Shown here in pieces: positions 17,713 to 53,019 of a DNA stretch of 64,000 nt (its first letter is position 1; each line of letters opens with the position of its first letter). The stretch is from Patescibacteria group bacterium (lineage in GTDB: Bacteria > Patescibacteriota > Patescibacteriia > UM-FILTER-42-10). The stretch lies in NCBI GenBank assembly GCA_041666845.1, contig JBAYGC010000005.1:584-64583 (forward strand), written 5' to 3'. Both the position numbers and the translations under genes were made by a program. Below the pieces are notes generated by a model. That model saw nothing but the letters and a program-made list of their open reading frames with translations. It did not search any database and was not told the origin of the DNA.

Positions 17713-17916
17713 ATGTCTTCAGATCTTAGGGCGGCGGTGATCAAATACACTGCCAAACAGCTCGGCGTGAGCGAGGATCAGGTCACCTTGGACACGGTGA
17801 TTCCCGACATCCACAGTCTGGTCACATTCGTGGCCATCGAGACCGGTAAGATCAGTTTCGTCCAGGATGTCCGTGCGAAGCACACCGTGGCGAAGGCGAT
17901 CAAATCGTTCCTTTAG
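17713..17916 (+). CDS. Acyl-carrier-protein-like small protein (67 aa), compositionally foreign (GC ~53%)
   Basis: Strong SD GAGGGGGG 6 nt upstream of ATG. The sequence follows the ACP pattern (QLGVSEDQVTLDT...DIHSLVTFVAIE), with Ser in HSL aligned to the phosphopantetheine-Ser position of DSL. Immediately downstream is a terminator. Confidence 0.5.
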   Translation: MSSDLRAAVIKYTAKQLGVSEDQVTLDTVIPDIHSLVTFVAIETGKISFVQDVRAKHTVAKAIKSFL

Positions 17917-17918
17917 TA

Positions 17919-17947
17919 GGGGTCGGATGTCTAGACCCCTTTTTTTA
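17919..17947 (+). terminator. Rho-independent terminator
   Basis: GGGGTC-GGATGTCTA-GACCCC followed by TTTTTTT. Confidence 0.8.
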
Positions 17948-17965
17948 TTTCCGCGAAAGAGAGGA

Positions 17966-18325
17966 TTATTGTTCAGCTTTTTTCTCAATCTTTTTCGCCA
18001 CAGTGCGGTTGAGATCATTGCGCCAGTTGTTGGTAAAGGTTTTTGTTTCGCCTAAGAGTCCGTCACAGAAGGCGGCTACATCTTGTCCTGTAATCTCCAG
18101 CGCGCTTCGACCATTGATGACTCCTTCTTCGAAGAGTTCGAGTAAACCTTTCAATACGTCTATTGATCCCAGTCCATTTTTAAACATGTAGCCTTTGATT
18201 TCATCATAGACAATCTGATAATCACGGGGCATTTTTTTGGCACGCGCTTCCATAGCCCGCCATTCTTTTTTATCGCCGGTTACTTTTTTCCAGAAGTTGT
18301 TGATCTCTTTTAATACGTTAGCCAT
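17966..18325 (-). CDS. DUF1048-like protein (PadR-associated)
   Basis: 119 aa immediately downstream of, and overlapping, a PadR regulator. This pairing is typical of PadR-DUF1048 operons. Confidence 0.5.
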   Translation of the reverse strand: MANVLKEINNFWKKVTGDKKEWRAMEARAKKMPRDYQIVYDEIKGYMFKNGLGSIDVLKGLLELFEEGVINGRSALEITGQDVAAFCDGLLGETKTFTNNWRNDLNRTVAKKIEKKAEQ

Positions 18326-18629
18326 TTGATTGTTCCTTTAGTTTGTTAATACTTTTTGTGATAAATTGCCATTTCCCCCAGAAGACGGACAGCTCCTTGC
18401 GTCCCGCGCTGTTGAGTGTATAGAATTTGCGCATCGGTCCCAGCTCGGAAGACCTTTTTTTGATATTCACCAGCCCGCTTTTTTCGAGCCTTAGGAGGAT
18501 GGTGTAAACCGTTCCTTCCACCACCTCTGTGAAGCCGAGTCCGCGGAGCTTGGATGCTATTTCGTAGCCGTAGGTTTCCTCCCGGCTGATGATCTCCAGG
18601 ATACAGCCCTCGAGTACGCCTTTTAACAT
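18318..18629 (-). CDS. padR: PadR-family transcriptional regulator
   Basis: MLKGVLEGCILEIISREETYGYEI...GTVYTILLRLEKSGLV is the classic PadR winged-HTH. The start was taken at the internal ATG (18629). The track ORF extends to a GTG at 18692. Confidence 0.8.
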   Translation of the reverse strand: MLKGVLEGCILEIISREETYGYEIASKLRGLGFTEVVEGTVYTILLRLEKSGLVNIKKRSSELGPMRKFYTLNSAGRKELSVFWGKWQFITKSINKLKEQSNG

Positions 18630-18680
18630 TTCCGTAATGTTTTCCAAAGTATTTCTCCTTTCCAATATTACTTGCTTAAT

Positions 18681-18707
18681 ATGTAGTATCACTTACTACC
18701 ACTACAT
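18681..18707. promoter_or_regulatory. Candidate PadR operator: ATGTAGT-N13-ACTACAT inverted repeat
   Basis: Palindrome ~50-75 nt upstream of padR. PadR operators are ATGT...ACAT palindromes. Also contains direct repeats TAGTATCAC x2. Confidence 0.45.
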
Positions 18708-18726
18708 AGTATCACGTAGTAGTTTT

Positions 18727-18845
18727 GGTGTCAAGAGATAGGGATTAGGTTTTAAGGGTAGGGTTGCCCCCACACCCAAGGCTGGTTGTGGGGGCTCTCC
18801 AGAAAACCCAATTTCTGTTGCTATGACTGGTCACTTTTCGGTGGA
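18727..18845 (+). repeat. R-module repeat (hairpin GCCCCCACACCC/GGTTGTGGGGGC plus CCAGAAAACCCAATTTCT...)
   Basis: Alignable with 13038-13150 (GGTGTCAA...CCCCCACACCC...GTGGGGG...AAAACCCGATTTCT). Confidence 0.7.
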
Positions 18846-18863
18846 CGTTTTCTAAAAACTTAT

Positions 18864-18965
18864 GGATCCCCGGATCCCCGGCCGCCTAACTGCCGTTAGG
18901 CAGTGGGGCAGGCAAGCCCGAGGATGACAATCAAATAACAAGTCATTCCCGCGAAAGCGGGAATC
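18864..18965 (+). repeat. P-module: ~100-bp MITE-like element with terminal inverted repeats GGATCCCCGG...CGGGAATCC
   Basis: Near-identical to 25975-26098 (59-bp core GGATCCCCGGCCGCCTAACTGCCGTTAGGCAGTGGGGCAGGCAAGCCCGAG[G/A]ATGACA). An internal perfect 7-bp hairpin GCCTAAC-TGCC-GTTAGGC overlaps an alternative CTGCC-GTTA-GGCAG stem. Confidence 0.75.
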
Positions 18966-19076
18966 CATGGAATTAATTTGATGCTGATATTAGCTAAAAT
19001 TAGCCCATTTAGTATTGACCCCGTTAGAGGAGTTCCTCTAAGCGGGGTTGACAAAAACCCAGTTTAGGTGTATGCT
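18966..19076 (+). promoter_or_regulatory. Q-module with outward sigma70-type promoter (TTGACA-17-TATGCT) driving 19231..19803
   Basis: The element ATTAGCTAAAATTAGCCCA...TTGACCCCGTTAGAGGAGTTCCTCTAAGCGGGGTTGACAAAA contains a 12-bp inverted repeat and ends in TTGACA at 19048. The -10 TATGCT is at 19071. An inverted copy lies at 25866-25985. Confidence 0.6.
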
Positions 19077-19230
19077 GTCAGGTTTCATGGTTCATTGAAA
19101 TATCACTGCGTATATTGCCGTGGCGTCCAGATTAGAAAGAAGATCAGTCTAATTTGACCGCTCCGGCAATGTTGCCAAGCATGACATCCTAATGTCCAGT
19201 ATGGATTCCAAAGCCATGAAGGAGATTTCC

Positions 19231-19803
19231 ATGAAGAAGTCGTACATGACTCAGGACGACATCTACGTTGCCCAGGCGTGGAAGAGTCTGGCGAAGAAGC
19301 TGTTTCCTTGCCAGATCGTCGTGACGCTGGTCATGGTGACGCTGACCTACATCGCCCGGCGCTTCATCAATCACCACTATTTCGATCATGTGGTGACGGA
19401 TGCTGTCGCTGGCAACATCCCCAACGTGGTGATCGCGCTCGTAGCGTTCATCTTCGCCGGTGTGTTCGCGGTGGCTGTCGCGACCAACATCGCGTTCAGG
19501 AACGCACCGATTCGTACGATCACGCTCGTTCTGCTCACGTTCCTGGTACCTGCTGTGATCGGCGCCTTCTCCAGCTTCTGCTCGCACATCTATCTCCGGC
19601 CGGCGGATATCGTGTATGATTTCATTCCGGCGGTTCTGCTCATCGGGGTCTGGTGGTACACCAGCAACGCGCTCGATGAGGCCAGCGGATCGAACTTCGG
19701 TCAGAGCAAGGTCGCGAAAAGGATTCGAAACAGGATCGAGTACGCCTGTATCGGACAGTTCGCGATCTTCATGATTCTGATGGCCTACGTCATCGGGATT
19801 TAA
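19231..19803 (+). CDS. Polytopic membrane protein (5-6 TM), compositionally foreign (GC ~58%)
   Basis: SD AAGGAG lies 6 nt upstream of ATG at 19231. The track ORF starts 13 codons earlier, without an SD. The sequence is hydrophobic throughout. The antisense 211-aa ORF was rejected as a high-GC artefact. Confidence 0.65.
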   Translation: MKKSYMTQDDIYVAQAWKSLAKKLFPCQIVVTLVMVTLTYIARRFINHHYFDHVVTDAVAGNIPNVVIALVAFIFAGVFAVAVATNIAFRNAPIRTITLVLLTFLVPAVIGAFSSFCSHIYLRPADIVYDFIPAVLLIGVWWYTSNALDEASGSNFGQSKVAKRIRNRIEYACIGQFAIFMILMAYVIGI

Positions 19804-19954
19804 CTGCCCTTTTGACCTGAGCAAGTCCTAAGAAGTGCTCACCCGCCAGGTAACTGACGGGTTTTTTCTTTGCCAAAAAATATTAACCGATAATCAAAAA
19901 CAAGCGCGGTCAAACCCGCGCCTGCATTTATATTTTTTACAAACAGTTATTTGA

Positions 19955-20611
19955 TTAGTTGCATTTTTCAAATGATGTGAGGTGTTTATCCTGTGAGGCA
20001 TCCATCAGGCTTGTAAATACCGTTGTAATATCTTCGTATTCGGTCACGGCGGGCAATAATTCATCTCTGTACAATCTCGCGTTGGCGATCTCAGCTTCTA
20101 CTCCCACCTGACATGTTTCTTTTATTGTCACGGGGATTTCAATAGTCGCAGGCTGATATGGATCCTCGGGTATTGTCTCGCCGTATTTATCATACAGCGC
20201 TTTCAGCGAACTGATGTGCTGTTCTTCCGCGCGGATGATCATTGAAAACGGCCGGACTGATCCGAATTTGCTTATTACCGCCTCATAAGTGGCGCGCGCT
20301 TTGTATTCGTCGTCAATAGCGCTGTTTAAGGCAGTCACAACGCTATTTGGTAGTTCACCCGCCGGATATTCCAGATTGCTGACCTGCAGACAATCGTCCG
20401 CCACGCAGTTGGATTTTGTGATAACTTCCGTTTCCGAGGTGTTGGTGTTCGAAATATTGACGTTACTAGTGTTTACATTACCGGCATTCACATTGTTTAA
20501 ATTAACGTTTTGGTTTGAATTATCATTCTGGAAATAATTATAAGATACAAATGCCCCGGTTAAAATTACGATAACTCCTAAAACTATGATCCCGTATTTC
20601 ATAATCATCAC
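19955..20611 (-). CDS. Membrane-anchored ferritin-like DUF2202-family protein
   Basis: N-terminal TM, Asn-rich linker, then a ferritin-like segment (SAIDDEYKARATYEAVISKFGSVRPFSMIIRAEEQHISSLKALYDKYG). Confidence 0.6.
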   Translation of the reverse strand: MMIMKYGIIVLGVIVILTGAFVSYNYFQNDNSNQNVNLNNVNAGNVNTSNVNISNTNTSETEVITKSNCVADDCLQVSNLEYPAGELPNSVVTALNSAIDDEYKARATYEAVISKFGSVRPFSMIIRAEEQHISSLKALYDKYGETIPEDPYQPATIEIPVTIKETCQVGVEAEIANARLYRDELLPAVTEYEDITTVFTSLMDASQDKHLTSFEKCN

Positions 20612-20713
20612 CCTTAATAATTAACGTGCAATTTGATTATAGCAAGTTTATTTTGCCCACTATAATGCCCCTTTCCCAAAATTCTGAAAGGGGCACTGAC
20701 TGGAGAGAACTTT

Positions 20714-21157
20714 TTAGCTTGCTAGATCACACTCACCGTCACCGGTTCCGTTCCCACTACCGTTTCCAGCGCCATTATTCTGTCCATTACCGCCCTGGCC
20801 GAACCCCAGGCCTCCGGAATATGGTCCTTCGCCGGTTTCACGTAGCTCGTTTCTCTGCGCCACTCTTTCTGCAATTTCTTCTTCACTGAAACCGCGTTCC
20901 TGCCATCTGGCCACCGCATTTGCTTCCATTTGCGCGTTCATTTCATCGATACTGACGCCCTGCTCCAAAGCGATCTCTTGATAATCTTTTGTCTCGCGTG
21001 CAGCAGAAAGCTCTTCAGTCGTCATACCTAGAATTTCCGCTTTTGTTTCCAACATGTTTGTTGAACCGTTACCGTTACCTTGCGCGTATACGACACCGCC
21101 GGTTAATGTTGCAATCGCAGAGATACCGAGGATGCCGCCTAATAAATATTTATTCAT
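20714..21157 (-). CDS. Secreted protein with signal peptide and Gly/Asn-rich C-terminus
   Basis: Signal peptide MNKYLLGGILGISAIATLTGGVVYA. No recognisable catalytic motif. Confidence 0.5.
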   Translation of the reverse strand: MNKYLLGGILGISAIATLTGGVVYAQGNGNGSTNMLETKAEILGMTTEELSAARETKDYQEIALEQGVSIDEMNAQMEANAVARWQERGFSEEEIAERVAQRNELRETGEGPYSGGLGFGQGGNGQNNGAGNGSGNGTGDGECDLAS

Positions 21158-21329
21158 ATAATTTTATTATTTGTTAATGTTAATTATTAATCCGACCTTT
21201 CACAACCTACTTGCATTCCCTTACTACGTGGTGGTATGGTATTTTATTTCAAAATATTTCCACAAAAAAAATTCCACTTATCGCGGAACTGCTATTCTAT
21301 TCAATGATGAGAAACTTGGATCAGCCGGC

Positions 21330-21593
21330 TTATTTGAAAGCGATTATCTGGAAACCGTATTTATCTACTTCTGCTTCGGTCCAGAAATTTTGGTCTTTGG
21401 TCTTAATAACGTGAGTAACCTCTTTTTCTATTTTCCGACCTGAATATTTTTTGGTCTGAGGATCCCATTCTTTCAATACCAGAAGATCGCCCGGCTGACA
21501 GTCGAAATCAGCCAATCGGAGTTCATATTTTTTGTCCCCGTCCATTATTTTTTGAAAATATTCAGGCCAAATTTTCTTTTCAATTTTTTTCAT
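21330..21593 (-). CDS. DUF3850-like (ASCH/PUA-like) small protein
   Basis: KIWPEYFQKIMDGDKKYELRLADFDCQPGDLLVLKEWD resembles the DUF3850 N-terminal signature. Confidence 0.45.
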   Translation of the reverse strand: MKKIEKKIWPEYFQKIMDGDKKYELRLADFDCQPGDLLVLKEWDPQTKKYSGRKIEKEVTHVIKTKDQNFWTEAEVDKYGFQIIAFK

Positions 21594-21623
21594 GTGAGCA
21601 ATGTTTGTGATACGGGTAAAGCC

Positions 21624-22316
21624 CTATGTCTTCTCAACCTTCTTTTTAATTTCTTCCAGAATTTCGATCTGCATTTCCTGTATCTGCATCATTTTTGACC
21701 ATTGATCCAGAAGCAGATGATCCACTTTCTCGTGCAGTGTCCGTATTTCGATTTCCGATTTTAAATTGACCTTGTAATCATTTTCCGATCTGATTCGGTC
21801 TTTCTTCTCCTGCCGGTTCTGACTCATCATAATGATCGGCGCTTGAATAGCGGCGATGCAGGATAAGATTAAGTTCATCAAAATGAAGGGGTAGGGGTCG
21901 AATGGCTTCTTCAGAATAAGCATACTGTTTAATGAGATCCACCCGAATAATATAATGAAAAATATAATAATGAATTTCCAACTGCCGCCGAACAGTGCGA
22001 CTCTGTCAGAAATCTTATCACCTAATTTCAAATCTTCTTTTGCCAGGACATTATCATTTTCTGTAATTGTTTCATTTTCTTTTATACTTTTTAACACTTC
22101 ATTCTGCAGATTCTGAATATTTCCCGTTTCTTCTTTGATGATGTTTAGTATGTATTTATCTCGGTATTTGTTGTAATCATCTTTACAAATCTTATTTGTA
22201 TCCGACCAGTCCGGAAAATCAATTCGAATCAAAGATTCAATCTCATGCCGGATGCCATGTCCTGATATCAGATCATCAGCTGAAAATGTTTTTTTACAAA
22301 TGTCACAAGTATTCAT
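21624..22316 (-). CDS. DUF1003-family membrane protein with N-terminal zinc-ribbon-like CxxC
   Basis: FGGSWKFIIIFFIILFGWISLN...PFDPYPFILMNLILSCIAAIQAPIIMMSQNRQ is the DUF1003 core. Followed by a C-terminal coiled coil. Confidence 0.6.
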   Translation of the reverse strand: MNTCDICKKTFSADDLISGHGIRHEIESLIRIDFPDWSDTNKICKDDYNKYRDKYILNIIKEETGNIQNLQNEVLKSIKENETITENDNVLAKEDLKLGDKISDRVALFGGSWKFIIIFFIILFGWISLNSMLILKKPFDPYPFILMNLILSCIAAIQAPIIMMSQNRQEKKDRIRSENDYKVNLKSEIEIRTLHEKVDHLLLDQWSKMMQIQEMQIEILEEIKKKVEKT

Positions 22317-22338
22317 ATTAGTGGCCTCCCATTATTTT

Positions 22339-22833
22339 TTAAACCACTTTGGCATAAAGATACGCGTCGTGTAGTTCATCACCGCGCCGCGCCGCTTTGC
22401 GCATAATGCCTTCTTTTTTGTATCCGCATTTGATCGCTACTTTCTGACTGCCGGAATTTTTAGTATTCATCTTGATTTCGATCCTGACAAGTTTCATTTT
22501 TTTGAATCCTATTTTTTCCAACTGTTTTACCGCTTTGGTGGTGATACCTCTGCCCCAGTAGGCCTCGTCTAGAAAATAACCGATCTCTCCGCACTGTTTA
22601 TTGTCGGGGTTGATTTTGATTCCGCAACCGCCTACCATCTTTGTATCGTACATGATAGCGAAGTGCTGGTTCAGACTCTTTTTATTCTGCTTGGCGTGTT
22701 TCTGAAGTATCTTTCTTTCTGCTTCAATTGATTTTGGGCAGATCCGGAAATAAATAAAATTGGGGTTGTTTAATATTTCATAAAACCTTTTGGCGTCGGA
22801 TACTTTCTGTTTGCGGATTGTTACTTTGGGCAT
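22339..22833 (-). CDS. GNAT-family N-acetyltransferase (RimJ/RimL-like)
   Basis: Acetyl-CoA binding motif (QCGEIGYFLDEAYWGRGITTKAVKQL). Start taken at internal ATG (MPKVTIRK). Confidence 0.75.
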   Translation of the reverse strand: MPKVTIRKQKVSDAKRFYEILNNPNFIYFRICPKSIEAERKILQKHAKQNKKSLNQHFAIMYDTKMVGGCGIKINPDNKQCGEIGYFLDEAYWGRGITTKAVKQLEKIGFKKMKLVRIEIKMNTKNSGSQKVAIKCGYKKEGIMRKAARRGDELHDAYLYAKVV

Positions 22834-22834
22834 G

Positions 22835-23059: not shown

Positions 23060-23169
23060 AGTATTTTTGAATTATTGATTTAAGTCTTCGGAATATGAGG
23101 CTTTAGCTTTATATGAGGTAAGGCTAAAGCCTTACATTCCATTACCATTTAATTTTTAATGTCTTCAAA

Positions 23170-24258
23170 CTAGTTATCACTTTTTGCTGAAGCTTGTTGA
23201 ATCCGCCGACAGCGTTCCAGGTGATAGTCATAAAAAACACATCCTTCGCCAATACAGCTGGTACGTGGGCAGACGGTGGCAAGTTGGTTCGGATCAATCG
23301 CTTTTTTTAAAATTTCCTTAATTTCTTCTAAGCTCAATCTGGTTGGCGTCACGCCCTCCGGTGCGATCCCGCCGTTCTGAATGCTATTGGCAGTGGTGTC
23401 ATAATACCATTCTTCCACCCCCTTCAGGCGAGCGGATTTTGCCAGTTCATCAATGCTGGTGATTTCTAAGATAGCATCTTTCTTGCGTGCCTCTTCTATC
23501 CGGAGCATGACAGCGACGTCTTTGAGGTTGATGTCGCGCATTTGCCTGGTAATCAAGTTGGTGTGTCCCGTAGAAAGTCTTTGTACGACTACATCCGCTT
23601 TAGTGTCCGGATTTGCCCGCAAAAAACCCACCAGACTAATATCATCATTTTCTACGACCACGATTTTTACCAGTTTCTTACCCTGGAATACTTCAAACTG
23701 GTCGGTCTTTTTTTCCTGCTGGAGTTTTTCCCATTCCTGCGGAAGAACGGTCATTCTTTTGCGTTCCTCGCGGTAGTGTGAAACAAAAATCGGCATGACA
23801 ATATTGATAATCTTCTGCGGCTCACTTTGGTATTCGCGGTTCAGGTTCATAATCAGGCCGGAAAGGCCGAAAGCCCGGTCGATCGGGTCGCTCGAGATAA
23901 TCCCTTTTCCTTCCAGATCGTCTCTTTTGACATAAGTAATCAGTTTCTTCAGTGCTGGGTCATTTTCCACACCTAGGAATTTTGCCACCAAAGTAGTGGC
24001 ACATTCTCCCGTGTTATCTTTACCGCCTTCCTCGGTGTGGTGGTCAAATTTTCCGCCACCCATGTCGATGAGTAAAATACCCTCGCTTTCCAGTTCATCA
24101 GTATTCCTGCCTTCCGGAACACTGTTCCAGAATTCAATCTTGCTGTTTCTAACCCCCGGGAACTTTTCTTCGCCAAAAAGCTTCAATAACATAATCGCTA
24201 CGATATTGTCCGGATGCGGACGGGGAAAGATTACGATTGTATGGATTGGTTGGGACAT
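23170..24258 (-). CDS. MYG1/UPF0160-family metal-dependent hydrolase (putative 3'-5' exoribonuclease) with C-terminal Cys-rich zinc-ribbon
   Basis: N-terminal H-P-D-N-I-V-A-x-x-LL matches the MYG1 motif H-x-D-E-A-L-A-x-x-LL. LLIDMGGGKFDHH matches MYG1 VVDVGGEYD...YDHHQ. C-terminus is CPRTSCIGEGCVFYDYHLERC. Host-like GC. Confidence 0.6.
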   Translation of the reverse strand: MSQPIHTIVIFPRPHPDNIVAIMLLKLFGEEKFPGVRNSKIEFWNSVPEGRNTDELESEGILLIDMGGGKFDHHTEEGGKDNTGECATTLVAKFLGVENDPALKKLITYVKRDDLEGKGIISSDPIDRAFGLSGLIMNLNREYQSEPQKIINIVMPIFVSHYREERKRMTVLPQEWEKLQQEKKTDQFEVFQGKKLVKIVVVENDDISLVGFLRANPDTKADVVVQRLSTGHTNLITRQMRDINLKDVAVMLRIEEARKKDAILEITSIDELAKSARLKGVEEWYYDTTANSIQNGGIAPEGVTPTRLSLEEIKEILKKAIDPNQLATVCPRTSCIGEGCVFYDYHLERCRRIQQASAKSDN

Positions 24259-24560
24259 GGGGTTTTTATACTGTCATCAAAGTAATTACTGAATGTCACT
24301 TCGACCGTAGTGGACCCGCCTCGCGTCGACGAGTAGAAGCGAGTCGAGGCGGGGAAGTCTATAGATTTCTCGGCTTCGTCTTGCTTTGCGCGACTACGCT
24401 CGAAATGACACACAGGAGGGAAGTAATGGTTTCATACATAAGTATAACGCAAAAAGCTTTATAAAAAAAGTAGGCCCCCGGAGTAAATCATCATGCAGAA
24501 TTGCAGACGAAATACTCGCGGGGGCACAGGGGTGAAAGAGCGAAACGATGCTGGCGAACG

Positions 24561-25616: not shown

Positions 25617-25865
25617 GGCTTTCTCCTTCGGCCAGAAGTAGGTGCACATGTGTCTCGGGAATCGAGACGGTCATGTTTTCAAGGAGCGGATCTCCTTGTT
25701 GGAGCCCGCGATCACTTACAGTGATCCTAGGCTCAAACAAAAAGCTTTCAGTGTACACATGGAGAGACTCTGAAAGCGCTGAATGTTGACATAGCTCTCT
25801 CCTCTGTCCTCCGTAGTGCCGCGAATGCGGTACGAAGGAGTGACAGAATTCTATGTTAACAGGCC

Positions 25866-25985
25866 AGTATACACCCAAAAGGGGGTTTTGTCAACCCCGT
25901 TAGAGAAACTTCTCTAACGGGGTCAAGACTGTGTGGGCTAATTTTAGCTAATGTTAGCAATTAATTAATTTGATGGATTCCCGGA
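25866..25985 (-). promoter_or_regulatory. Inverted Q-module with promoter TTGACA-17-TATACT pointing leftward toward 24561..25616
   Basis: Its reverse complement aligns with 18966-19056. -35 is at 25889-25894 and -10 at 25866-25871, both on the minus strand. Confidence 0.6.
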
Positions 25986-26098
25986 TCCCCGGCCGCCTAA
26001 CTGCCGTTAGGCAGTGGGGCAGGCAAGCCCGAGAATGACAAATAATACACCCCACCCCTGTCATTCCGGAATCCGACGAGAGGAGGATATCCGGAATC
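25975..26098 (+). repeat. P-module copy (MITE-like, TIR GGATTCCCGG...CCGGAATC)
   Basis: Core identical to 18864-18925 except one base. The right-end hairpin ATTCCGG...CCGGAAT is present. Confidence 0.75.
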
Positions 26099-26109
26099 TA
26101 TCTTAATCC

Positions 26110-26190
26110 GCTCAAGCGCTCCGACAAGCGACCTGTCTAGGATTATAGTAATATGGTTTTCTGGAGAACTGAACCCCACCCTTAACCTTT
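26110..26190 (-). repeat. R-module copy in inverted orientation, abutting the uvrC start
   Basis: The reverse complement (CTCCAGAAAACCATATTACTATAATCCTAGACAGGTCGCTTGTCGGAG) aligns with 17497-17545 and 18800-18845. Confidence 0.55.
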
Positions 26191-33161: not shown

Positions 33162-33198
33162 AATATACAAAGAGTGGTGGTAATAAAGAAAAAAATAT

Positions 33199-33216
33199 GC
33201 CGAAGTGGTGAAACTG
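33199..33216 (+). repeat. Direct duplicate of the first 18 nt of tRNA-Leu (GCCGAAGTGGTGAAACTG), 108 bp upstream of the intact gene
   Basis: Exact match to 33307-33324. It is followed by a structured segment with overlapping 9-bp and 13-bp hairpins. Confidence 0.7.
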
Positions 33217-33306
33217 CCATGAACCACTAAAGGGTTCATGGCTATCACGTACCCTTTAGTGGTACATGATGGTATGGAATAAAATTAATAATCATTGAAA
33301 CAATCT

Positions 33307-33393
33307 GCCGAAGTGGTGAAACTGGTATACACGCAGCGTTCAGGACGCTGTGGGCGCAAGCCCGTGGGAGTTCAACTCTCCCCTTCGGCACCA
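33307..33393 (+). tRNA. tRNA-Leu (anticodon CAG), type II with long variable arm
   Basis: Manual fold: acceptor GCCGAAG/CTTCGGC. D-stem GTG/CAC. Anticodon stem CAGCG/CGCTG with loop TTCAGGA. Variable arm GGGCGCAAGCCC. T-arm GGGAG-TTCAACT-CTCCC. Discriminator A plus an encoded CCA. Confidence 0.85.
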
Positions 33394-39930: not shown

Positions 39931-39968
39931 AAAAAAAGTGACCTGGCAGATTTGAAGTCTCTGCCAGG
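39931..39968 (-). terminator. Intrinsic terminator for the minus-strand gene 39997..40497
   Basis: CCTGGCAG-ATTTGAAGTCTC-TGCCAGG, preceded on the + strand by AAAAAAA (a T-run on the minus strand). Confidence 0.7.
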
Positions 39969-39996
39969 CCCACGAAACCAACCCACGATGAAGTGG

Positions 39997-40497
39997 TTAT
40001 TTCCCAAACAGCTTCTTGCGAAGCTCGTAGAAATTGACCACGATCGTGTAGAAAAGAACGTCGGCGAGCACCTTGCCCACCAGCACGCCGAGTAGCATGC
40101 CGAGCATCCCATCCATCATGATTGACTGAGAAGCCAGCATCAATGATGGCCGGATGACTGCGCTGTCAGCGAACTCTGCTGGTCCGTATTCCCAGACCAG
40201 ATTCCAGAAGGTGATCCAGGCAATCCGCCAAGCTGAGGTGTTCTCCCGCCGGTGGAGACGAATCTCCCGGACAATGGCGATGCCGTAGAAACCGACGTTC
40301 TCGCCAACCGTTCCGGCGTAGGAGATGATGATGGGGTTCTTGGTGAAAATCTGAGCAATTATGGCGCCCAGAATGGCTGTGGCCGTCCCGAGGATTTCCT
40401 GCGGAAGATACCGCCGGATCCATTCAGTAATCTTCTGCTTTGCCTTCAGAAGAAACCGTTTGGTGTTCTCGGTCAGCTTGTGCCTTAGTTGTGGCAC
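39997..40497 (-). CDS. Small 4-TM membrane protein, compositionally foreign (GC ~54%)
   Basis: GTG start with a GGGGA SD. Has its own TTGACA-17-TACAAT promoter and its own terminator. Unrelated to the flanking trpS and surface-protein genes. Confidence 0.65.
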   Translation of the reverse strand: MPQLRHKLTENTKRFLLKAKQKITEWIRRYLPQEILGTATAILGAIIAQIFTKNPIIISYAGTVGENVGFYGIAIVREIRLHRRENTSAWRIAWITFWNLVWEYGPAEFADSAVIRPSLMLASQSIMMDGMLGMLLGVLVGKVLADVLFYTIVVNFYELRKKLFGK

Positions 40498-40562
40498 TTT
40501 TTTCCCCTTAGGAAGGAGCTGTCCTATTGTTAAAAAGGGGTTCTACCCTATATTAACCGGAC

Positions 40563-40591
40563 ATTGTATCAGATATTTATGCAAATGTCAA
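40563..40591 (-). promoter_or_regulatory. Consensus-like promoter TTGACA-17-TACAAT on minus strand
   Basis: The reverse complement reads TTGACAtttgcataaatatctgaTACAAT. It lies ~70 nt upstream of the GTG start at 40497. Confidence 0.6.
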
Positions 40592-47065: not shown

Positions 47066-48361
47066 ATGAATATAAAAAATTTGAAAGAAACAGACCAAAT
47101 AATCGCGGAAACGCTGGAAAAGGAACTTGACCGGCAACGCAACGGAATAGAGCTGATAGCTTCGGAGAACTTTGTTTCCCTGGCAGTAATGCAGGCTTTG
47201 GGCAGTATCGGCACTAATAAATACTCGGAAGGGTATCCAAACAGAAGATATTATGGCGGATGCAAATATGTGGACGAAATTGAAAGTCTGGCGATTGAAC
47301 GGGCAAAAATGTTATTTAATGTTGACCATGTCAATGTACAAGCCTACTCCGGTTCGCCGGCCAATCTGGCGGTTTATTACGCATTGCTGAAACCGGGTGA
47401 TACTGTACTGGGTGCCAAGCTTTCTTTCGGCGGACATATGACTCACGGATTGAAGGTAAACTTTTCCGGCACTTTATATAATTCAGTCAACTATACCTCA
47501 GATAAAAACGGTTATCTGGATTTTGATGAAATCCGGAGTCTGGCTAAGGAGCACAAACCTAAACTGATAATCGCCGGTTTCACCGCCTACCCCAGAATTA
47601 TTGACTGGCAGAAGTTCAGGGCGATCGCGGACGAAGTAGGGGCGTTTTTACTGGCCGACATTTCTCATATTGCCGGGCTGATTATCGGCGGACAGCATCC
47701 CTCGCCGGCCAGGATCGCTGATGTTACCATGACGACTGCGCATAAAACATTGCGCGGGCCACGCGGAGCGATGATTCTTTCCAACGGTACCGTCTCCAAT
47801 TCTAATAAGCCGGTGGAACTGACCAAGGAGAATATTCCGACGCTGATTGACCGGGCAATTATTCCTGGTCTGCAAGGTGGGCCACACAACCATACGACAG
47901 CGGCTATTGCTGTTGCGTTGCAAGAGGCGATGCAGCCGGAATTCAAGGAATACGCGAAACAGATTGTCCTGAACGCCAAAGCTTTGGCGAAATCTTTGAT
48001 GGCGGAAGGATTGGAACTGGTCACCGGCGGAACGGATAACCATCTGATGCTGGTTGATCTGACCAAAACGGGGGTCACCGGCAAGGAAGCCGAAGTGGCG
48101 CTGGGAGAGGCCGAGATCTTTGTGAATAAAAATACCGTTCCTCATGATCTGCGCAAACCCACTGATCCGTCCGGTATCCGACTGGGTACGCCGGCTCTGA
48201 CTACTCGTGGACTTAAAGAAGATGACATGGAACTGATCGGACAGCTGATTACCAAAGTGATCAAGAATATTAATGACTCATCGGTTAAGGGAGAAGTAAA
48301 AAAACAGGTGAAAGAACTGATGGATCAATATCCGCTTTATCCGGGATTAACCTATTTGTAA
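47066..48361 (+). CDS. glyA: Serine hydroxymethyltransferase
   Basis: PLP-lysine motif TTHKTLRGPRGA. Start taken at the ATG with AAGGA SD. The track ORF begins at an upstream GTG. Confidence 0.95.
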   Translation: MNIKNLKETDQIIAETLEKELDRQRNGIELIASENFVSLAVMQALGSIGTNKYSEGYPNRRYYGGCKYVDEIESLAIERAKMLFNVDHVNVQAYSGSPANLAVYYALLKPGDTVLGAKLSFGGHMTHGLKVNFSGTLYNSVNYTSDKNGYLDFDEIRSLAKEHKPKLIIAGFTAYPRIIDWQKFRAIADEVGAFLLADISHIAGLIIGGQHPSPARIADVTMTTAHKTLRGPRGAMILSNGTVSNSNKPVELTKENIPTLIDRAIIPGLQGGPHNHTTAAIAVALQEAMQPEFKEYAKQIVLNAKALAKSLMAEGLELVTGGTDNHLMLVDLTKTGVTGKEAEVALGEAEIFVNKNTVPHDLRKPTDPSGIRLGTPALTTRGLKEDDMELIGQLITKVIKNINDSSVKGEVKKQVKELMDQYPLYPGLTYL

Positions 48362-49186
48362 ATGGCTAAAATATTAAATGGACGGAAACTGGCTGTCGGT
48401 ATCCGACGTAATCTGAAACAAAAAATCGCGAAATCAAATATCCAGCCCGGACTGGCTGCTATTCTAGTAGGTAATGATCCGGCTTCGGAAACTTACGTCA
48501 GTCTGAAGGAAAAAGCATCCGCTGAGGTCGGTATTTATTTTGAAAAATATCTTTTTCCGGCCAAAACCACGCAGGCAAACATTATTCGCAAGGTCAAGAA
48601 ACTGAACCGGGATAAAAAAATCCATGGAATATTAGTACAGTTGCCACTGCCGGGTAGGTTGAATGAAAACAAAGTGATTCATGCGATTGATGTAAGAAAA
48701 GATGCTGATGGTTTCCACGCGGAAAACGTAAAATTATTCCTGAAAGGGAAGTCCGTTATTCAACCCGGTCTGCCTTTCGGGATAGTGACACTTTTGGTAA
48801 GCACTCATGTTTCCCTGAAAAATAAACACGCGCATATTCTAGCGAAGAGCCCGATTTTCATTAGCCCCTTGAAAAAGATGTTGGAAGCAAAAGGGGTGGA
48901 GGTTACATCAGGTAGAAAGATTGATGCAGTAAAAAATATGGACATCGTAATTTCTGCTTTAGGCAAACCTCATTTCATTCAATCAAAACATATCAAAAAA
49001 GGCGCGATTGTTATTGATGTCGGCTATAACCGGAAAGGAAAAAAAGTTGTCGGCGATGTGCATCCTTCGGTAATAAAAAAAGCCGGCTATCTTTCGCCGG
49101 TTCCGGGAGGAGTGGGACCAATGACGGTCGCTATGCTTCTCGAGAATACATACCAATTGGCGAAGCACATCAGGCGCCATTCATAA
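48362..49186 (+). CDS. folD: Bifunctional methylenetetrahydrofolate dehydrogenase/cyclohydrolase
   Basis: NGRKLA N-terminus, a PGGVGP motif and conserved YVSLKEKA lysine region. Its ATG immediately follows glyA. Confidence 0.9.
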   Translation: MAKILNGRKLAVGIRRNLKQKIAKSNIQPGLAAILVGNDPASETYVSLKEKASAEVGIYFEKYLFPAKTTQANIIRKVKKLNRDKKIHGILVQLPLPGRLNENKVIHAIDVRKDADGFHAENVKLFLKGKSVIQPGLPFGIVTLLVSTHVSLKNKHAHILAKSPIFISPLKKMLEAKGVEVTSGRKIDAVKNMDIVISALGKPHFIQSKHIKKGAIVIDVGYNRKGKKVVGDVHPSVIKKAGYLSPVPGGVGPMTVAMLLENTYQLAKHIRRHS

Positions 49187-49628
49187 TTCCCTTGACCCAG
49201 CTTTTCCACTCGCCGTTATCGTCGTTATCTGCCTGAAAGTGACGCCAAAATTCCTGTGGCTTCACCATTTTTATTTTTTTGTATTCACCGAGGAATAAGA
49301 GATCATTGTCTTCGGTAACGATAAATCCGGCTTTTCCGTCGATTGCCGCTTCGATCAGTTTATTATCTTCCTTGTCCCATTTCACTACATTCACCCTGCT
49401 TTTGTGCGGGATGTTTTTTGATTTTCTGTAGAAATCCTCCAGAATTTCAAGATAGGCTTTTTCTCTGATCAATTCCCGGGATTTCTGCCTGTTTTCCTTC
49501 AGTAAGGAACGGTTAAAAACCGCCTGGAGCTTCATTTCCCGGCAGGCATTGATAATCCGAAAAGCATAGCTGGATTCGTCCTGCAAACCGGTGATTAATA
49601 CGTTAGTGTCTAGTACTATTCTGATCAT
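49170..49628 (-). CDS. PIN-domain protein (VapC-like nuclease fold)
   Basis: MIRIVLDTNVLI N-terminal acidic motif and later TEDNDLL. Its 3' end overlaps the folD 3' end by 17 nt (convergent). No antitoxin ORF upstream. Confidence 0.7.
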   Translation of the reverse strand: MIRIVLDTNVLITGLQDESSYAFRIINACREMKLQAVFNRSLLKENRQKSRELIREKAYLEILEDFYRKSKNIPHKSRVNVVKWDKEDNKLIEAAIDGKAGFIVTEDNDLLFLGEYKKIKMVKPQEFWRHFQADNDDNGEWKSWVKGIMNGA

Positions 49629-49815
49629 GGTGTTATTCTATAGGTCTTGTTACAAGTTAGCAAATATCTGATATGATTGGGTGGTAAATGGTAATCGGCA
49701 ATTCGTAATTGGTAATTGTATTCATACATCCATGTTACAATAATATGACTATTTACCACTTACTAATTACATATTTTCAGTTACTAATTACGAATTACTA
49801 ATAAATACAACCCCC

Positions 49816-50880
49816 ATGTCCTTCTCCATCGGAATCGTTGGTCTGCCGAATGTCGGAAAATCAACCCTATTTATTGCTTTAACTAAGAAACAGGTAGATG
49901 CGTCTAACTATCCTTTTTGTACCATTGAACCGAATGTGGGAGTAGTGGCGGTTCCGGATGACCGGCTGGACAAGCTGACTAAAATCTACAATTCAGAAAA
50001 AACTATTCATACGACCATCGAGTTTGTGGATATTGCCGGGTTGGTGAAGGGCGCAGCCAAGGGTGAGGGTCTGGGGAATAAATTTTTGGCGCACATCCGG
50101 GAAGTGGATGCGATTGTGGAGGTTGTGCGGGATTTCAAAAATGACGACATTATTCATGTGAACGGAAAAATTGATCCGGAAGAGGATGTCGCGACCATCA
50201 ATCTGGAATTAATTCTGGCTGATCTGGAAACTGTGAGTAAGCGGTTAGGCCCATTAGAAAAACAAACCAAAGCATCTAAAGATAAAGACTTATTGAAAAA
50301 TGTCGAGATTCTGCAGAACCTGAAAAAGATTCTGGAAAGTGAACAGTTCGCGATTAATCTGGAAGTGAATAAAGAAGATATTAAATATGTGAAAGAACTG
50401 AGCCTGCTGACATATAAGCCGGTGCTGTATGTTTATAATGTTTCGGAAGATGAGATTAATACACCGCGGGAAAACCGCAAAACACCGAATCTGGCCATTT
50501 GCGCCAAGCTAGAAGCGGAACTGGCAACATTACCTGAGGATGAGGTGAAAGAATATCTGTCAGAAATGAAAATTGAGCAGACCGGACTTGAGAAACTGAT
50601 TGTGGAATCATATAAAATGCTGGGACTGGTTACCTTCCTGACTGCCGGTCCCAAAGAAACCCGCGCCTGGACGGTAAAGTCGGGGACACTGGCACCGCAG
50701 GCGGCTGGGGTAATTCACACCGATTTTGAAAAAGGATTTGTCCGCGCGGAAGTAACCAACTGGCAGGATCTGGTGACCTGTGGCGGCGAACAGGGCGCAA
50801 AAGAAAAAGGCCTGATGCATCTGGAAGGCAAAGAATACGAAATAAAAGACGGGGACACGATCTATTTCCGGATCGCCTAG
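49816..50880 (+). CDS. ychF: Ribosome-binding ATPase YchF (Obg-family)
   Basis: G1 motif GLPNVGKST, a DIAGLV motif and a C-terminal TGS domain. Confidence 0.93.
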
Positions 50881-50954
50881 TTGCTTTACCCGTCTAAAGT
50901 ATGATAATATATAAACAGGGTCTCACCATAAGACACTTCTTCTGAGGAGTCGGC

Positions 50955-51122
50955 ATGGACGACGACACAACCAAGCGGATGTCTCCGCACAAGAAGAAGC
51001 ACACGCCTCCTCCCACAACCAAGAACGGTCAACTGACCGGAAAGGGGGTCACCGTGCTCCTCTCCCGCAGGGAAACTCCCCGTACGAGGAACTTCGTGGA
51101 CGCCAAACCGGCCTTGTGCTAG
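50955..51122 (+). CDS. Hypothetical 55-aa Lys/Thr/Pro-rich protein in high-GC island
   Basis: GAGGAG SD 5 nt upstream of ATG. A hairpin plus T-run terminator follows at ~51250-51290. The overlapping 114-aa minus-strand ORF was rejected as an antisense artefact. Confidence 0.3.
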   Translation: MDDDTTKRMSPHKKKHTPPPTTKNGQLTGKGVTVLLSRRETPRTRNFVDAKPALC

Positions 51123-51457
51123 AGAGGGGGTGATTATATCTCTCTCAAGGGTAGGCGAGAGTCTAAATCTACCCCTTGAGAGTACGAGGGGAGGTGATCC
51201 CACCAGATCGTTTTCATGACCACCGGTCACGTTTCAATACCATGTGCGCCGAGGCTTACTGGGAGGGAAGCTTCGGCATTTTTTTCTAAATTAATTAAAA
51301 CACTTATCAGACCACAGTTGAGTGGTTTTTTTATAATAAAAAATCCTCGGGTACTATAAGAATTAACAGCGATAAATATTGACAATTTGATGATTCTTGC
51401 TACTATGTTGGACTGGTCGCACATTCAAAACAGAAACCGGGAGAGGGGGGTGACACA

Positions 51458-51727
51458 ATGTCCAGCAAAAACAAGCGGAACATTCTCTACTTCAAGGCCA
51501 AGACCGTGCAGAAGCTCTATGAGCGCATGCAGGTCTGGCAGAAGAAGCACAACAAGCGCTTTCTTTCGATCAGCATCCAGAAAGACGGCGACATGTTCTG
51601 CTGTATCGCTCTGACCAATCCGAGCGAGGTGGTAATCACCAGCATGGATGGTAAGCGTCATGCTAATGTCTTGGATATTCCTAATGGACGGGATGGATCG
51701 GGATTTTTGCGTACTTCCAATGGTTAG
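51458..51727 (+). CDS. Hypothetical 89-aa protein in high-GC island
   Basis: Strong promoter TTGACA-16-TACTAT (51379-51410) and extended SD GGGAGAGGGGGTG. GC ~52%. Confidence 0.55.
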   Translation: MSSKNKRNILYFKAKTVQKLYERMQVWQKKHNKRFLSISIQKDGDMFCCIALTNPSEVVITSMDGKRHANVLDIPNGRDGSGFLRTSNG

Positions 51728-51773
51728 ATAAGAGGGTCTGTTTACATAGCAATAGATTCTCTTTTTTCTTTGA

Positions 51774-51803
51774 ATAAAAAAATCCGTCATTTTTTCATGA
51801 CGG
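51774..51803 (-). terminator. Intrinsic terminator for minus-strand gene 51817..52131
   Basis: CCGTCAT-TTTTTC-ATGACGG hairpin preceded on the + strand by AAAAAAA. Confidence 0.7.
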
Positions 51804-51816
51804 AAACGCCACAGAT

Positions 51817-52131
51817 CTAGAAGCCATAGGACCTATGGCGGAACGGGTAGTGCAATGGATTATAATCGTCGGAAGGGTCTCCCTTAAAGGGCGGGATGAC
51901 TTCGCGTTCGTACGGCTTGGGTGCGAGGTTCCCGGCCTTGCCACAGGCTGAGGGCGATTCGCGGATGATCTCCGCGCCGTGCTTGTCGTAGAGGACGCCG
52001 TGATCCCAGCGCCACGGCAGAGGGTGTGCCTCGATGGTGGCGGGCTTGAGCATCTTGCGACGGAGTTGCTTGCGCCGACCCTGAGCTGACCGGTCGCGAA
52101 GTTCAGGTTTGTTGTTCTTGTGCCTGGTCAT
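51817..52131 (-). CDS. Hypothetical 104-aa basic protein in high-GC island
   Basis: SD GGAGGGG 8 nt upstream of ATG. Arg/Lys-rich N-terminus. GC ~58%. Confidence 0.5.
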   Translation of the reverse strand: MTRHKNNKPELRDRSAQGRRKQLRRKMLKPATIEAHPLPWRWDHGVLYDKHGAEIIRESPSACGKAGNLAPKPYEREVIPPFKGDPSDDYNPLHYPFRHRSYGF

Positions 52132-52487
52132 TGCTTTTCCCCTCCGGTTATCTGAAACACAAAAACGACTGAAGAACGACTTGCTAATCCTAGTCCCGAC
52201 TATTTATTTTGTCAATAAAAAACACCTGAGCTGTTATGCAGAGGTGGCTTTTTTTGTTTTTTTAAGATCGTCCTTTTTGATATTATGAGTCAGGTATTGA
52301 CACTTGCGATTAACTGTGCTATATTTCCGCGTTCAATACTCTTAGATTAATGAGTCAATTACGGTTTTCTCTGCGCGTATTTTACTTAGAAATACTTACA
52401 GAGAAGACCATAACAAATGTGGTTTTCCTCTTTGCCGTGTTGGCGAGGAGAAAGCTTTCTCGAAAGAGGAGGCGAAGGAGCATTGTG

Positions 52488-52952
52488 ATGATCAACACGT
52501 TGCGTTCCGTGGCTCACCTGCAGCGGGAGATCGGCGACGATCTCTTCGAGGCGCTGGTAAGTTCGGATCACACGGAAGCGGTCCGGAGATTCGCCAAAAA
52601 GTTGGCGAAGATCTTGCCGACCAAGATCACGGTCGGCGGCAGAACATACGAGATTCTCCCCATCCTTCGGGAGGGGGAAGAGAGCGTCAAGGGCGACATT
52701 GTGGTCGCCCGTGCCAGGGAAATGAATGCCCATCTCGGCATAGACGACGGCGAGCATCTACTGGCCCACCGAGACGAGCTTCCCGCCGTCTTGCGCGGTC
52801 AGGGGATCGTCTTCGTCTTCACCGACTGGTGTCACCCCGAGGACCCTAAGTCTGTCGCCCGTGTCTATCATATCGGCGGCGACTGGACTCTGGGCTGGGA
52901 CGGGCTCCACTACGACTTCAGTGACGATACTCGGGTGCTCCGCCGCAAGTAA
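52488..52952 (+). CDS. Hypothetical 154-aa protein in high-GC island
   Basis: SD AAGGAG 7 nt upstream of ATG. The track ORF starts earlier but has no SD there. GC ~60%. Confidence 0.5.
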   Translation: MINTLRSVAHLQREIGDDLFEALVSSDHTEAVRRFAKKLAKILPTKITVGGRTYEILPILREGEESVKGDIVVARAREMNAHLGIDDGEHLLAHRDELPAVLRGQGIVFVFTDWCHPEDPKSVARVYHIGGDWTLGWDGLHYDFSDDTRVLRRK

Positions 52953-52959
52953 GGTGCTT

Positions 52960-53019
52960 AGACCCTCGGGATCAGGGAACTCAACAAATTCCTCGGTCCC
53001 TTGGGTCTCTTTTTATTTT
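52960..53019 (+). terminator. Intrinsic terminator (complex hairpin AGACCC...GGGTCT plus TCTTTTTATTTT)
   Basis: Directly after the stop at 52952. Confidence 0.65.

Follow-up and report, generated by a model that had tools for sequence, protein, structure and literature searches.

GC-rich single-gene units in an AT-rich Patescibacteria genome: fresh imports or a resident class of genes?

Genes with an atypical GC content are routinely read as recent horizontal transfers. Does this rule hold for eight GC-rich open reading frames (ORFs), here named C1 to C8, that are scattered between positions 17713 and 52952 of a 64,000-nucleotide stretch of DNA from a Patescibacteria group bacterium (contig JBAYGC010000005.1, positions 584 to 64,583; referred to below as the window)? 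An initial annotation, made from the sequence without database searches, had taken the genes for foreign cargo that was delivered piece by piece. We find that the rule fails for these genes. In our reading, in which we place a little more than even confidence, the eight ORFs belong to a resident, distinct class of self-contained single-gene expression units, whose GC-rich coding is held by a directional force, and are not fresh imports.

The window has a GC content of 43.4%, compared with the ~40% background given for it initially. It encodes a set of core genes (rpoB/C, ftsK, recA, efp, ssb, S6, uvrA/B-type repair genes, RNase J, SHMT, folD and ychF), and the nearest named matches of its YchF protein, at ~70% identity, belong to Candidatus Komeilibacteria. 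The names that NCBI gives for the C3 and YchF matches place the organism in Patescibacteria, and the host is best described as a Komeilibacteria-like Patescibacterium. An assembly chimera, which the initial annotation had named as a possible artefact, is ruled out: the region around C3 is identical at the DNA level in two independent assemblies (ENA ERZ27249449 and JGI 3300037810), and orthologous loci exist in relatives. The relatives' loci (L plus a number) were retrieved by exact-protein look-ups and provided the basis for all synteny comparisons, while 43 neighbouring genes of the window served as the host reference set.

Base composition and expression signals

The 43 host genes have a per-gene GC content of 0.417 +/- 0.052 and a GC content at the third codon position (GC3) of 0.443 +/- 0.083. 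Compared with this set, the eight ORFs are real outliers, as had been annotated, with distinct codon tables, GC values of 0.49-0.61 and GC3 values of 0.68-0.86 (z = 2.8-5.0). Their first and second codon positions (GC1 and GC2) lie near host values. At the third position, the base frequencies are A 0.07, C 0.45, G 0.34 and T 0.15, versus 0.27, 0.22, 0.24 and 0.27 in host genes; NNC codons are chosen over NNU, and AAG and GAG over AAA and GAA. The 5′ untranslated regions (UTRs) of the C genes have 45% GC and no depletion of A, and intergenic GC amounts to 0.43 beside C genes versus 0.35 between host genes. The GC excess sits largely at the coding third position. A scan of every window ORF of at least 40 amino acids returned no further independent GC3-rich gene. 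The mildly raised recA (9993-11012), with a GC3 of 0.63 (z = 2.3) versus 0.33 in L006, has no Shine-Dalgarno (SD) sequence and so falls outside the class.

Each gene was also said to possess its own promoter, strong SD and terminator, and this is borne out by consensus matches and SD energies. Promoter-like sequences of the form TTGACA-N17-TAnnnT are found upstream of C2, C3, C4, C6, C7 and C8, with weaker forms at C1 and C5, and the 5′ UTRs are about 40-250 nt long. A hairpin followed by a T-run stands after C1 to C4, after C6/C7 and after C8, and closes the C5 transcript (51248-51285). Calls of both promoters and terminators are matches to consensus patterns only. The duplex energy of the SD with the 16S tail ranges from -7.3 to -17.5 kcal/mol in the eight ORFs (mean -11.4), compared with a mean of -1.9 for the 43 host genes, most of which have no SD (Mann-Whitney p = 1e-5). 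The units would thus follow a common plan of a near-consensus sigma-70 promoter, a leader, a strong SD, GC-ending codons and an intrinsic terminator, with the leaders of C2, C3 and C8 predicted to be long (about 150-250 nt) and structured. The core genes that surround them have AT-rich silent sites and, for the most part, no SD.

Such signals might simply mark very highly expressed native genes with ordinary translational codon bias. The near-consensus promoters and strong SDs, the choice of NNC over NNU and the mild GC3 enrichment of recA, efp and ssb all agree with this explanation. We nevertheless judge it very improbable because the bias does not extend to genes for ribosomal proteins and translation factors: the GC3 values of S6, EF-P, SSB and RpoB/C are 0.43-0.54 in the window and a host-like 0.30-0.34 in L006. 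Moreover, the preference for AAG/GAG over AAA/GAA represents a general G/C effect rather than the usual set of optimal codons.

Long open antisense frames, also recorded earlier, do run across the eight ORFs. They display the high-GC1 pattern typical of shadow frames in GC3-rich genes, and are an expected by-product because TTA, CTA and TCA codons are avoided. A non-coding RNA or an antisense gene in place of the proteins was considered and rejected in view of in-frame indels, protein homologues, the confident fold of C8 and the GC1-high shadow-frame pattern of the antisense ORFs. There is a practical warning in these frames, as public gene callers chose the antisense strand for several such genes. 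The shadow ORF was taken as the gene for C1 in L001 (17632-17931) and for the C2 orthologue in L008 (19039-19590), and it is annotated instead of the C4 and C7 orthologues in L092 (1511-2011 and 16478-16930).

Orthologues in relatives and silent-site turnover

C3 has an orthologue between uvrC and a paralogue of normal GC in L003, L006 and L008, which represent three other species-level lineages. Identity to the window protein is 80% in L003 (GC3 0.84, host GC3 ~0.47), 79-81% in L008 (GC3 0.85, host ~0.46) and 67% in L006 (GC3 0.73, host ~0.32). The window paralogue (23170-24258, minus strand; 362 amino acids, GC3 0.51, no SD) is the tandem partner of C3, with which it shares 30% identity over the C-terminal 100 amino acids (E = 4e-6). 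This pair is kept in the same three loci and in the distant L129, a contig of ~55% GC in which a 30%-identical C3 homologue stands beside the corresponding partner and the two genes do not differ in their high GC. C3 and its normal-GC paralogue are an ancient tandem pair, of which one copy is GC-rich and one host-like in the AT-rich genomes. A small AT-rich GIY-YIG gene stands between the two in L006 (11234-11521) and L008 (11269-11559), and is absent from the window and L003.

The remaining units differ in how regularly they occur. C5 lies directly 3′ of ychF in all relatives examined, and indels in its ORF are in frame. C1 has orthologues in L006 (74% identity, GC3 0.60) and L003 (52%, GC3 0.71), in both cases in the uvrC-S6 interval, which does not hold C1 in L008. 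An orthologue of C2 is found in L008 (65% identity, GC3 0.85), and GC-rich orthologues of C4 are present in L003 and L092. C6 matches L092 with 59% identity over 63 amino acids in tblastn and 52% over 73 codons in a local codon alignment; the C7 orthologue in L092 is 62% identical and located ~5 kb off the equivalent position. Both the C6 and the C7 orthologue are GC-rich as well. At the C4 site, the terminator of an FG-GAP gene runs straight into the trpS promoter in L094 and L096, where the window has a 750-nt C4 unit. The filled and empty junctions reveal no target-site duplication, inverted repeat or R element, a repeat described further below.

The interval between ychF and a methyltransferase gene (window 50881-57714) contains C5 alone in L094, a complete diversity-generating retroelement (DGR) in L096, other cargo in L092 and C6-C8 in the window; it is, to judge from these four loci, a hot spot. 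The window version of the interval also carries a run of unusually AT-rich small genes (53727-57616, GC3 0.21-0.48). Absence from the same site in close relatives is mixed and does not hold for the set taken together: C3 and C5 are present in every related locus examined, whereas C4 and C6-C8 are missing from L094 and L096 and partly present in L092 and L003. The set can be divided into apparently fixed units (C1, C3, C5) and variable ones (C2, C4, C6-C8). The view that the eight are scattered autonomous single-gene units, several of them with gene-sized presence or absence in relatives, and not a contiguous island, is upheld by these comparisons.

Is the GC-rich composition of the shared genes decaying or held? 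Between the window and the L006/L096 lineage, 311 of 666 fourfold sites of host genes show a strong/weak (S/W) mismatch, against ~0.52 expected at saturation, and the proportion of silent differences (pS) in host genes is 0.72-0.85. With the saturation level simulated from each gene's own codon usage, codon mismatch over this distance has reached 0.80 of saturation in C3 and 0.80-0.92 in host genes; towards the sister species the values are 0.55 and 0.54-0.68, respectively. Pairwise identities of C3 follow the species order. The GC3 of C3 in L006 is 0.73, compared with ~0.45-0.55 expected under neutral decay. The silent sites of C3 have turned over about as far as those of host genes and yet are GC-rich; they must therefore have been redrawn from a GC-rich distribution, so that over this distance the composition appears to be held and not decaying. 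In such long-range comparisons, GC-rich codon usage behaves as a stationary property. Raw silent distances (dS, pS) had given the impression that C-gene silent sites evolve at about half the host rate. This difference largely vanishes upon correction for saturation, since skewed codon usage saturates at a lower level and the lower raw pS is mostly an artefact; we do not count it as a sign of silent-site constraint.

The C8 family provides a broader view of the same property. In 27 of its 32 metagenome loci, the homologue has a GC content of 0.52-0.69 (GC3 0.59-0.94) and the rest of the locus one of 0.30-0.50, and in an example profile the GC spike is exactly one gene wide. Family pairs with 40-60% amino acid identity are 84-88% saturated at silent sites, and still have GC3 values of 0.6-0.93. 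Only three homologues are host-like, all of them distant, and two of these lie in contigs of ~60% GC. GC-richness thus persists from species to species and, in the case of the C8 family, throughout dozens of AT-rich genomes.

These results bear on the proposal that each gene was delivered recently and independently from a high-GC donor, possibly via the R/P/Q repeats, and has not yet ameliorated. The sharply atypical composition, the autonomy of the units, the gene-sized presence or absence of C4 and C6-C8, and the R repeats that adjoin C1-C3 are in line with it. The part of the initial annotation that described atypical composition and scattered units therefore stands; the recent arrival does not, given the GC-rich orthologues of C1, C3 and C5 in relatives. 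C3 and C5 occupy conserved sites with the same GC3 in species that are 80-90% silent-saturated relative to the window. A search of 5.8 billion proteins returned seven homologues of C3, every named one from Patescibacteria, and 14 matches to C8, none of which carries a name, and revealed no donor lineage for either protein. Relatives of the C proteins were not found on viral contigs, a PHROG search gave no match beyond one marginal one, and Pfam scans of the window's main ORFs detected neither an integrase nor a transposase. The featureless C4 junction and the host-like GC1 and GC2 point in the same direction. Recent delivery is contradicted for the fixed units C1, C3 and C5, the other units are without donors, borders or vectors, and we consider it quite improbable overall.

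Comparison with known mobile or transferred genes leads to a similar picture. Phage morons, as described by Hendrix and colleagues, are reportedly single genes with their own promoter, terminator and atypical composition that are inserted between other genes. The C units resemble them in having one gene, a sigma-70-type promoter, an intrinsic terminator, an odd composition and an intergenic position, in occurring in either orientation and in being present or absent between relatives. Unlike morons, they lie between core genes (ychF, uvrC, trpS, RNase J) with no prophage and have no viral-contig relatives; several are fixed across species, and their composition is stably maintained. In the model of Lawrence and Ochman, compositionally atypical transferred genes are said to ameliorate over time. 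Atypical GC and codon usage and the patchy distribution of some units would fit, but the composition of the C genes has not moved towards that of the host, although silent divergence is close to saturation; GC1 and GC2 resemble host values, and no donors were found. Integron cassettes likewise are small single-gene modules that vary between relatives; the C units, however, have their own promoters, lie in both orientations and are scattered, and surveys of repeats and Pfam domains in the window revealed no attC-like shared 3′ element and no integrase.

A different form of transfer deserves more weight. The genes could be old imports from GC-rich, SD-using lineages, such as Patescibacteria of ~55-60% GC, that still circulate by recombination among co-occurring relatives. 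Every copy would then in effect be young, and the GC-richness historical and slowly decaying. Most of the observations that weigh against a resident class with a maintained composition belong here. L094 and L096 lack C4 and C6-C8, which must therefore have been gained or lost as units; this fits the presence and absence seen at the hot spot. Homologues are carried by contigs at ~55-60% GC (L100, L126, L129), and a GC-rich reservoir therefore exists within Patescibacteria. C1 is nearer to the outgroup copy (74%) than to the ingroup copy (52%), its tree disagrees with the species tree, and it has reached only 0.57 of saturation; the discordance and the low silent divergence point to lateral exchange of at least one cassette. 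On the terminal branches of C3, 22 silent S>W changes exceed seven W>S changes, at host-like per-site rates, in a parsimony count made with skewed composition and an AT-rich outgroup. The excess resembles decay, but parsimony has a known tendency to overcount changes from common to rare states in sequences of skewed composition. Finally, the comparisons draw on a single window and a handful of 20-kb loci.

Continual exchange is also in agreement with the high ratios of non-synonymous to synonymous change (dN/dS) of the C genes and with the finding that window C3 and the L008 orthologue of C2 share a leader (see below). It accounts less well for C3, whose silent sites have come as close to saturation as those of host genes and whose pairwise identities track the order of the species. 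In AT-rich genomes, many C8 homologues reach GC3 values of 0.85-0.94, above the 0.63 and 0.82 of the copies in GC-rich contigs, and few have ameliorated, as 27 of the 32 are still GC-rich. In addition, the reverse transcriptase (RT) and Avd genes next to DGR targets have the AT-rich composition of the host. We regard continual exchange with slow decay as possible, if rather doubtful.

If the composition is held, the force that keeps GC high could be selection, biased gene conversion or continual exchange, with GC-biased gene conversion as the main alternative force. In that case, unusually frequent recombination of cassettes between strains or species, together with biased repair, would raise GC without any selection on the mRNA. 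This would be compatible with the stationary GC-rich composition, with the signs of exchange and with the raised GC of flanking non-coding DNA (0.43 versus 0.35). It is at odds with an excess located at third codon positions (45% GC in the 5′ UTRs versus GC3 values of 0.7-0.86), with the sharp gene-sized boundaries of the spikes, and with C3, which is apparently inherited vertically. We think gene conversion unlikely as the cause. For the resident class that we favour, we infer a directional force on the coding regions, of which synonymous-site selection tied to mRNA expression is the likeliest candidate. Messages that are structured and rich in GC would depend on an SD for initiation; their leaders could serve for regulation, and they might be longer-lived.

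A proposed class of fast-evolving genes and the link of C8 to diversity-generating retroelements

The association between GC3 and SD usage extends beyond the eight genes. Among 127 genes of seven related loci, the 23 that are GC3-rich, defined as having a GC3 at least 0.2 above the local median, have a median SD energy of -9.6 kcal/mol, compared with -1.9 for the other 104 (p = 5e-10). C8 homologues from diverse genomes possess a strong SD in 20 of 21 cases and a consensus-type promoter 160-270 nt upstream in 17 of 21. High GC3 and SD-led translation thus go closely together, in genomes where SD sequences are otherwise little used. The proteins also evolve fast. Their dN/dS values are 0.22-0.79, versus 0.01-0.10 for host genes; towards the sister species they range from 0.28 to 0.59, the latter for C2, and the highest value, 0.79, was obtained for C1 against L003.

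The class would thus code for small, lineage-restricted, fast-evolving proteins, among them two membrane proteins, three small basic proteins and one with a C-type-lectin fold. Some units would be fixed in the clade (C1, C3, C5), while others (C2, C4, C6-C8) would be gained and lost at hot spots between genes. The initial annotation had further suggested that the set might encode a multi-component system. We found no support for this: within 6 kb of the 32 C8-family loci, the eight do not co-occur.

C8 offers the clearest connection to a known kind of protein. Members of its family combine a conserved N-terminal part with a hypervariable C-terminal stretch of ~45 residues. The AlphaFold2 model of C8 has a pLDDT of 86 and matches C-type-lectin-like domains, including those of the DGR variable proteins TvpA and Mtd; the model therefore assigns C8 a C-type-lectin fold, with the variable residues at the C-terminus as in DGR targets. 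In L090, two tandem C8 homologues lie between two RT/Avd pairs (RVT_1 and bAvd genes), and a template repeat (TR, 11463-11589) differs from the two variable repeats (VRs, 10409-10535 and 10954-11080) only at TR adenines. Avd or RT genes also adjoin C8 homologues in L104, L116 and L119. In the window, by comparison, no RT, Avd or TR for C8 was found within the 64 kb. Judged by its relatives, C8 is a member of a DGR-target family whose cognate RT, Avd and TR are missing from this stretch. In L100 (417-1721), on a ~58% GC contig whose sample also yielded relatives of the window organism, a C8 homologue adjoins an ORF that, judged by sequence alone, resembles a Y1 transposase of the IS200/RAYT type.

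A complete DGR is found in the close relative L096 (12138-14610), at the same ychF hot spot. It comprises a GC-rich target of 184 amino acids that is not homologous to C8, a VR (12555-12690), a TR (13091-13226), bAvd and RVT_1. All TR/VR differences lie at TR adenines, and the element looks active. In all DGR loci examined, the targets are GC-rich and the RT and Avd genes host-like and AT-rich. Erosion of adenines by the DGR reverse transcriptase was considered as the cause of the high GC and rejected: T is depleted at third positions as well, the 5′ UTRs are not depleted of A, and C8 is the only one of the eight genes with a connection to DGRs.

C8 shares with known DGR variable proteins, such as Mtd of phage BPP-1, TvpA of Treponema denticola and the set from the candidate phyla radiation (CPR) (PMC5758913), the conserved N-terminal part and the hypervariable C-terminus. 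Its homologues also adjoin RT and Avd genes and TR/VR pairs that differ only at TR adenines. In contrast to these proteins, C8 itself is accompanied by neither RT nor Avd nor TR in the 64-kb window and is unusually small, with 154 amino acids. We regard C8 as a new and small addition to the DGR targets with a C-type-lectin fold. The survey in PMC5758913 brings up atypical GC solely as an indication that entire DGRs were transferred horizontally, and does not mention GC spikes of single genes in AT-rich genomes. In the literature searched, we found neither target genes with a GC spike nor a GC3/SD dichotomy described for Patescibacteria.

If the coupling of GC3 and SD reflects selection, it would define a second expression class in ultra-small bacteria. 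Its signature, consisting of a single-gene GC3 spike, a strong SD, a consensus promoter and a terminator, would then find fast-evolving genes, probably for host interaction and including DGR targets. A bolder version of this idea, which we put forward only tentatively, is that the clade runs two expression regimes: an AT-rich bulk without SD, and a small, fast-evolving set that is GC3-rich, SD-dependent and leader-controlled and is under selection, probably for host interaction. The latter set would consist of membrane proteins, small basic proteins and DGR-diversified lectin-like proteins. With such a format, translation, stabilisation or switching of these genes could be uncoupled from that of housekeeping genes, for instance in attachment or dormancy, and the GC spike would be a functional signature usable in any AT-rich CPR genome.

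Functional assignments for the other proteins are limited. Neither C3 nor C8 matched a Pfam, NCBIfam or PHROG family. The C3 family amounts to about 177 uncharacterised clusters with no Pfam match; C3, its paralogue and 10 family members gave no match in Pfam or NCBIfam, a sequence search of the PDB gave none either, and the AlphaFold2 model of C3 (pLDDT 46) is too poor for fold comparison. The description of C3 as a MYG1-like dead hydrolase was therefore not confirmed. The same applies to the acyl carrier protein (ACP)-like nature ascribed to C1, which has no Pfam match at E <= 0.1 and no NCBIfam match at E <= 0.01. Its only PDB match is an ACP at E = 0.57, over residues 2-32, and C1 reads HSL at the place of the conserved DSL serine motif of ACPs. 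The sequences of C2 and C4 are consistent with membrane proteins, and C5, C6 and C7 are small basic proteins.

Anatomy of the units and shared regulatory parts

The coordinates initially given for the eight ORFs are correct, with C3, C4 and C7 on the minus strand. C1 (17713-17916, plus strand) codes for 67 amino acids with a GC3 of 0.75. It is preceded by a promoter-like sequence (17637-17666) and the SD GAGGGGGGTG (17700-17709), and followed by a terminator (17919-17946). Further upstream, the region 17497-17636 contains a P-like motif (17497-17541) and a GC-rich palindromic R element (~17560-17636), both in plus orientation.

C2 (19231-19803, plus strand; GC3 0.80) encodes 190 amino acids with at least four hydrophobic segments and ends in a terminator at 19840-19867. 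Its upstream module (19019-19230) is composed of a hairpin with the arms CCCCGTTAGAG and CTCTAAGCGGGG (19019-19047), a TTGACA-17-TATGCT promoter (19048-19076) and the 5′ UTR. Another R element precedes it at 18862-18937 (plus strand) and is 97% identical to 25973-26041.

C3 (24561-25616, minus strand) is the most GC-rich of the set, with 351 amino acids, a GC content of 0.61 and a GC3 of 0.86; its terminator lies at 24463-24525. The region upstream (25617-25922) holds the promoter (25866-25894), a hairpin that abuts the -35 element (25895-25922) and a structured leader (25617-25865). A third R element (25973-26048) and a P-like motif in minus orientation (26119-26163) complete the region upstream of C3, which extends to 26163.

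C4 is encoded on the minus strand by a cassette (39931-40591) made up of a terminator (39931-39970), the coding sequence (39997-40497) and a promoter (40563-40591). The product is a predicted membrane protein of 166 amino acids (GC3 0.71) with weak similarity to DUF456.

The remaining units are clustered at the ychF hot spot. The C5 transcript (50885-51285, plus strand) would start from a promoter at 50885-50910 and contains an ORF (50955-51122) for a basic protein of 55 amino acids (GC3 0.79). Next to it, the C6 unit (51379-51803, plus strand) comprises a promoter (51379-51406), the SD GAGAGGGGGGTGA (51441-51453) and a coding sequence (51458-51727) for a basic protein of 89 amino acids (GC3 0.68). 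Its terminator (51784-51803) is common to C6 and C7. C7 lies on the minus strand (unit 51817-52215), where its coding sequence (51817-52131) specifies a basic protein of 104 amino acids (GC3 0.74), with a promoter at 52187-52215. The C8 unit (52297-53014, plus strand) has a promoter (52297-52324), a leader hairpin (52427-52480), a coding sequence (52488-52952; 154 amino acids, GC3 0.77) and a terminator (52960-53014), and the hypervariable region of the family corresponds to the C-terminal third of the protein (~52824-52940).

Several regulatory parts are shared between genes that are not homologous. A hairpin and promoter (GGGGTTGACAAAA...) are common to C2 and C3 in the window, and the promoter word is also found upstream of C8 homologues in three unrelated loci. 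The C3 leader, which is structured and about 230-250 nt long, is conserved in three relatives (L003 9868-10102; L008 9783-10000; L006 9765-10000), across species with saturated silent sites. The same leader precedes the C2 orthologue, non-homologous to C3, in L008 (19396-19605, minus strand). It contains a terminator-like hairpin (25735-25777, minus strand, in the window) with the arms GCTTTCAG and CTGAAAGC followed by TTTTTGTTT, as well as a CAAGGAG/CTCCTTG hairpin. An upstream ORF of 13 codons within this leader is not kept in L006, and the leader has no match in Rfam.

The R elements share an 18-mer, GCAAGCCCGAGRATGACA, with three exact copies upstream of C1, C2 and C3 (17611-17628, 18912-18929 and 26023-26040), compared with 0.02 expected, and related elements occur upstream of GC-rich homologues in L008 and L098. 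The promoter-like P motif is present upstream of C1 and C3, and a third copy is located near the S6 gene (13096-13140). R and P repeats resemble repetitive extragenic palindromic (REP) or miniature inverted-repeat transposable elements (MITEs). R repeats were found only near C1-C3, with no evidence that they move genes. The S6 ORF (12359-13330, minus strand) reads as 323 amino acids, versus 175-210 in orthologues. Its true start is probably near 12920, in which case the P-like motif at 13096 lies within a spurious extension.

C5 may have a second role. The 3′ part of its transcript (51123-51285, ~160 nt) is more highly conserved than the ORF in the window, L092, L094 and L096; it is structured, with a covarying stem, and ends in the terminator. 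A motif in this part, GGGAGGTGATCC, is complementary to the 3′ tail of 16S rRNA. The C5 transcript has no match in Rfam, and in the Rfam searches as a whole nothing reached the gathering score, with sub-threshold matches only in E-value mode. From these features, the C5 transcript may be a dual-function small RNA.

A separate observation concerns the tRNA-Leu(CAG) gene of the window (33307-33393). Its first 18 nt are duplicated at 33199-33216, and the copy is followed by a hairpin with 23-nt arms (33218-33268), all within the region 33181-33393. This partial duplicate may be the remnant of an integration or duplication event.

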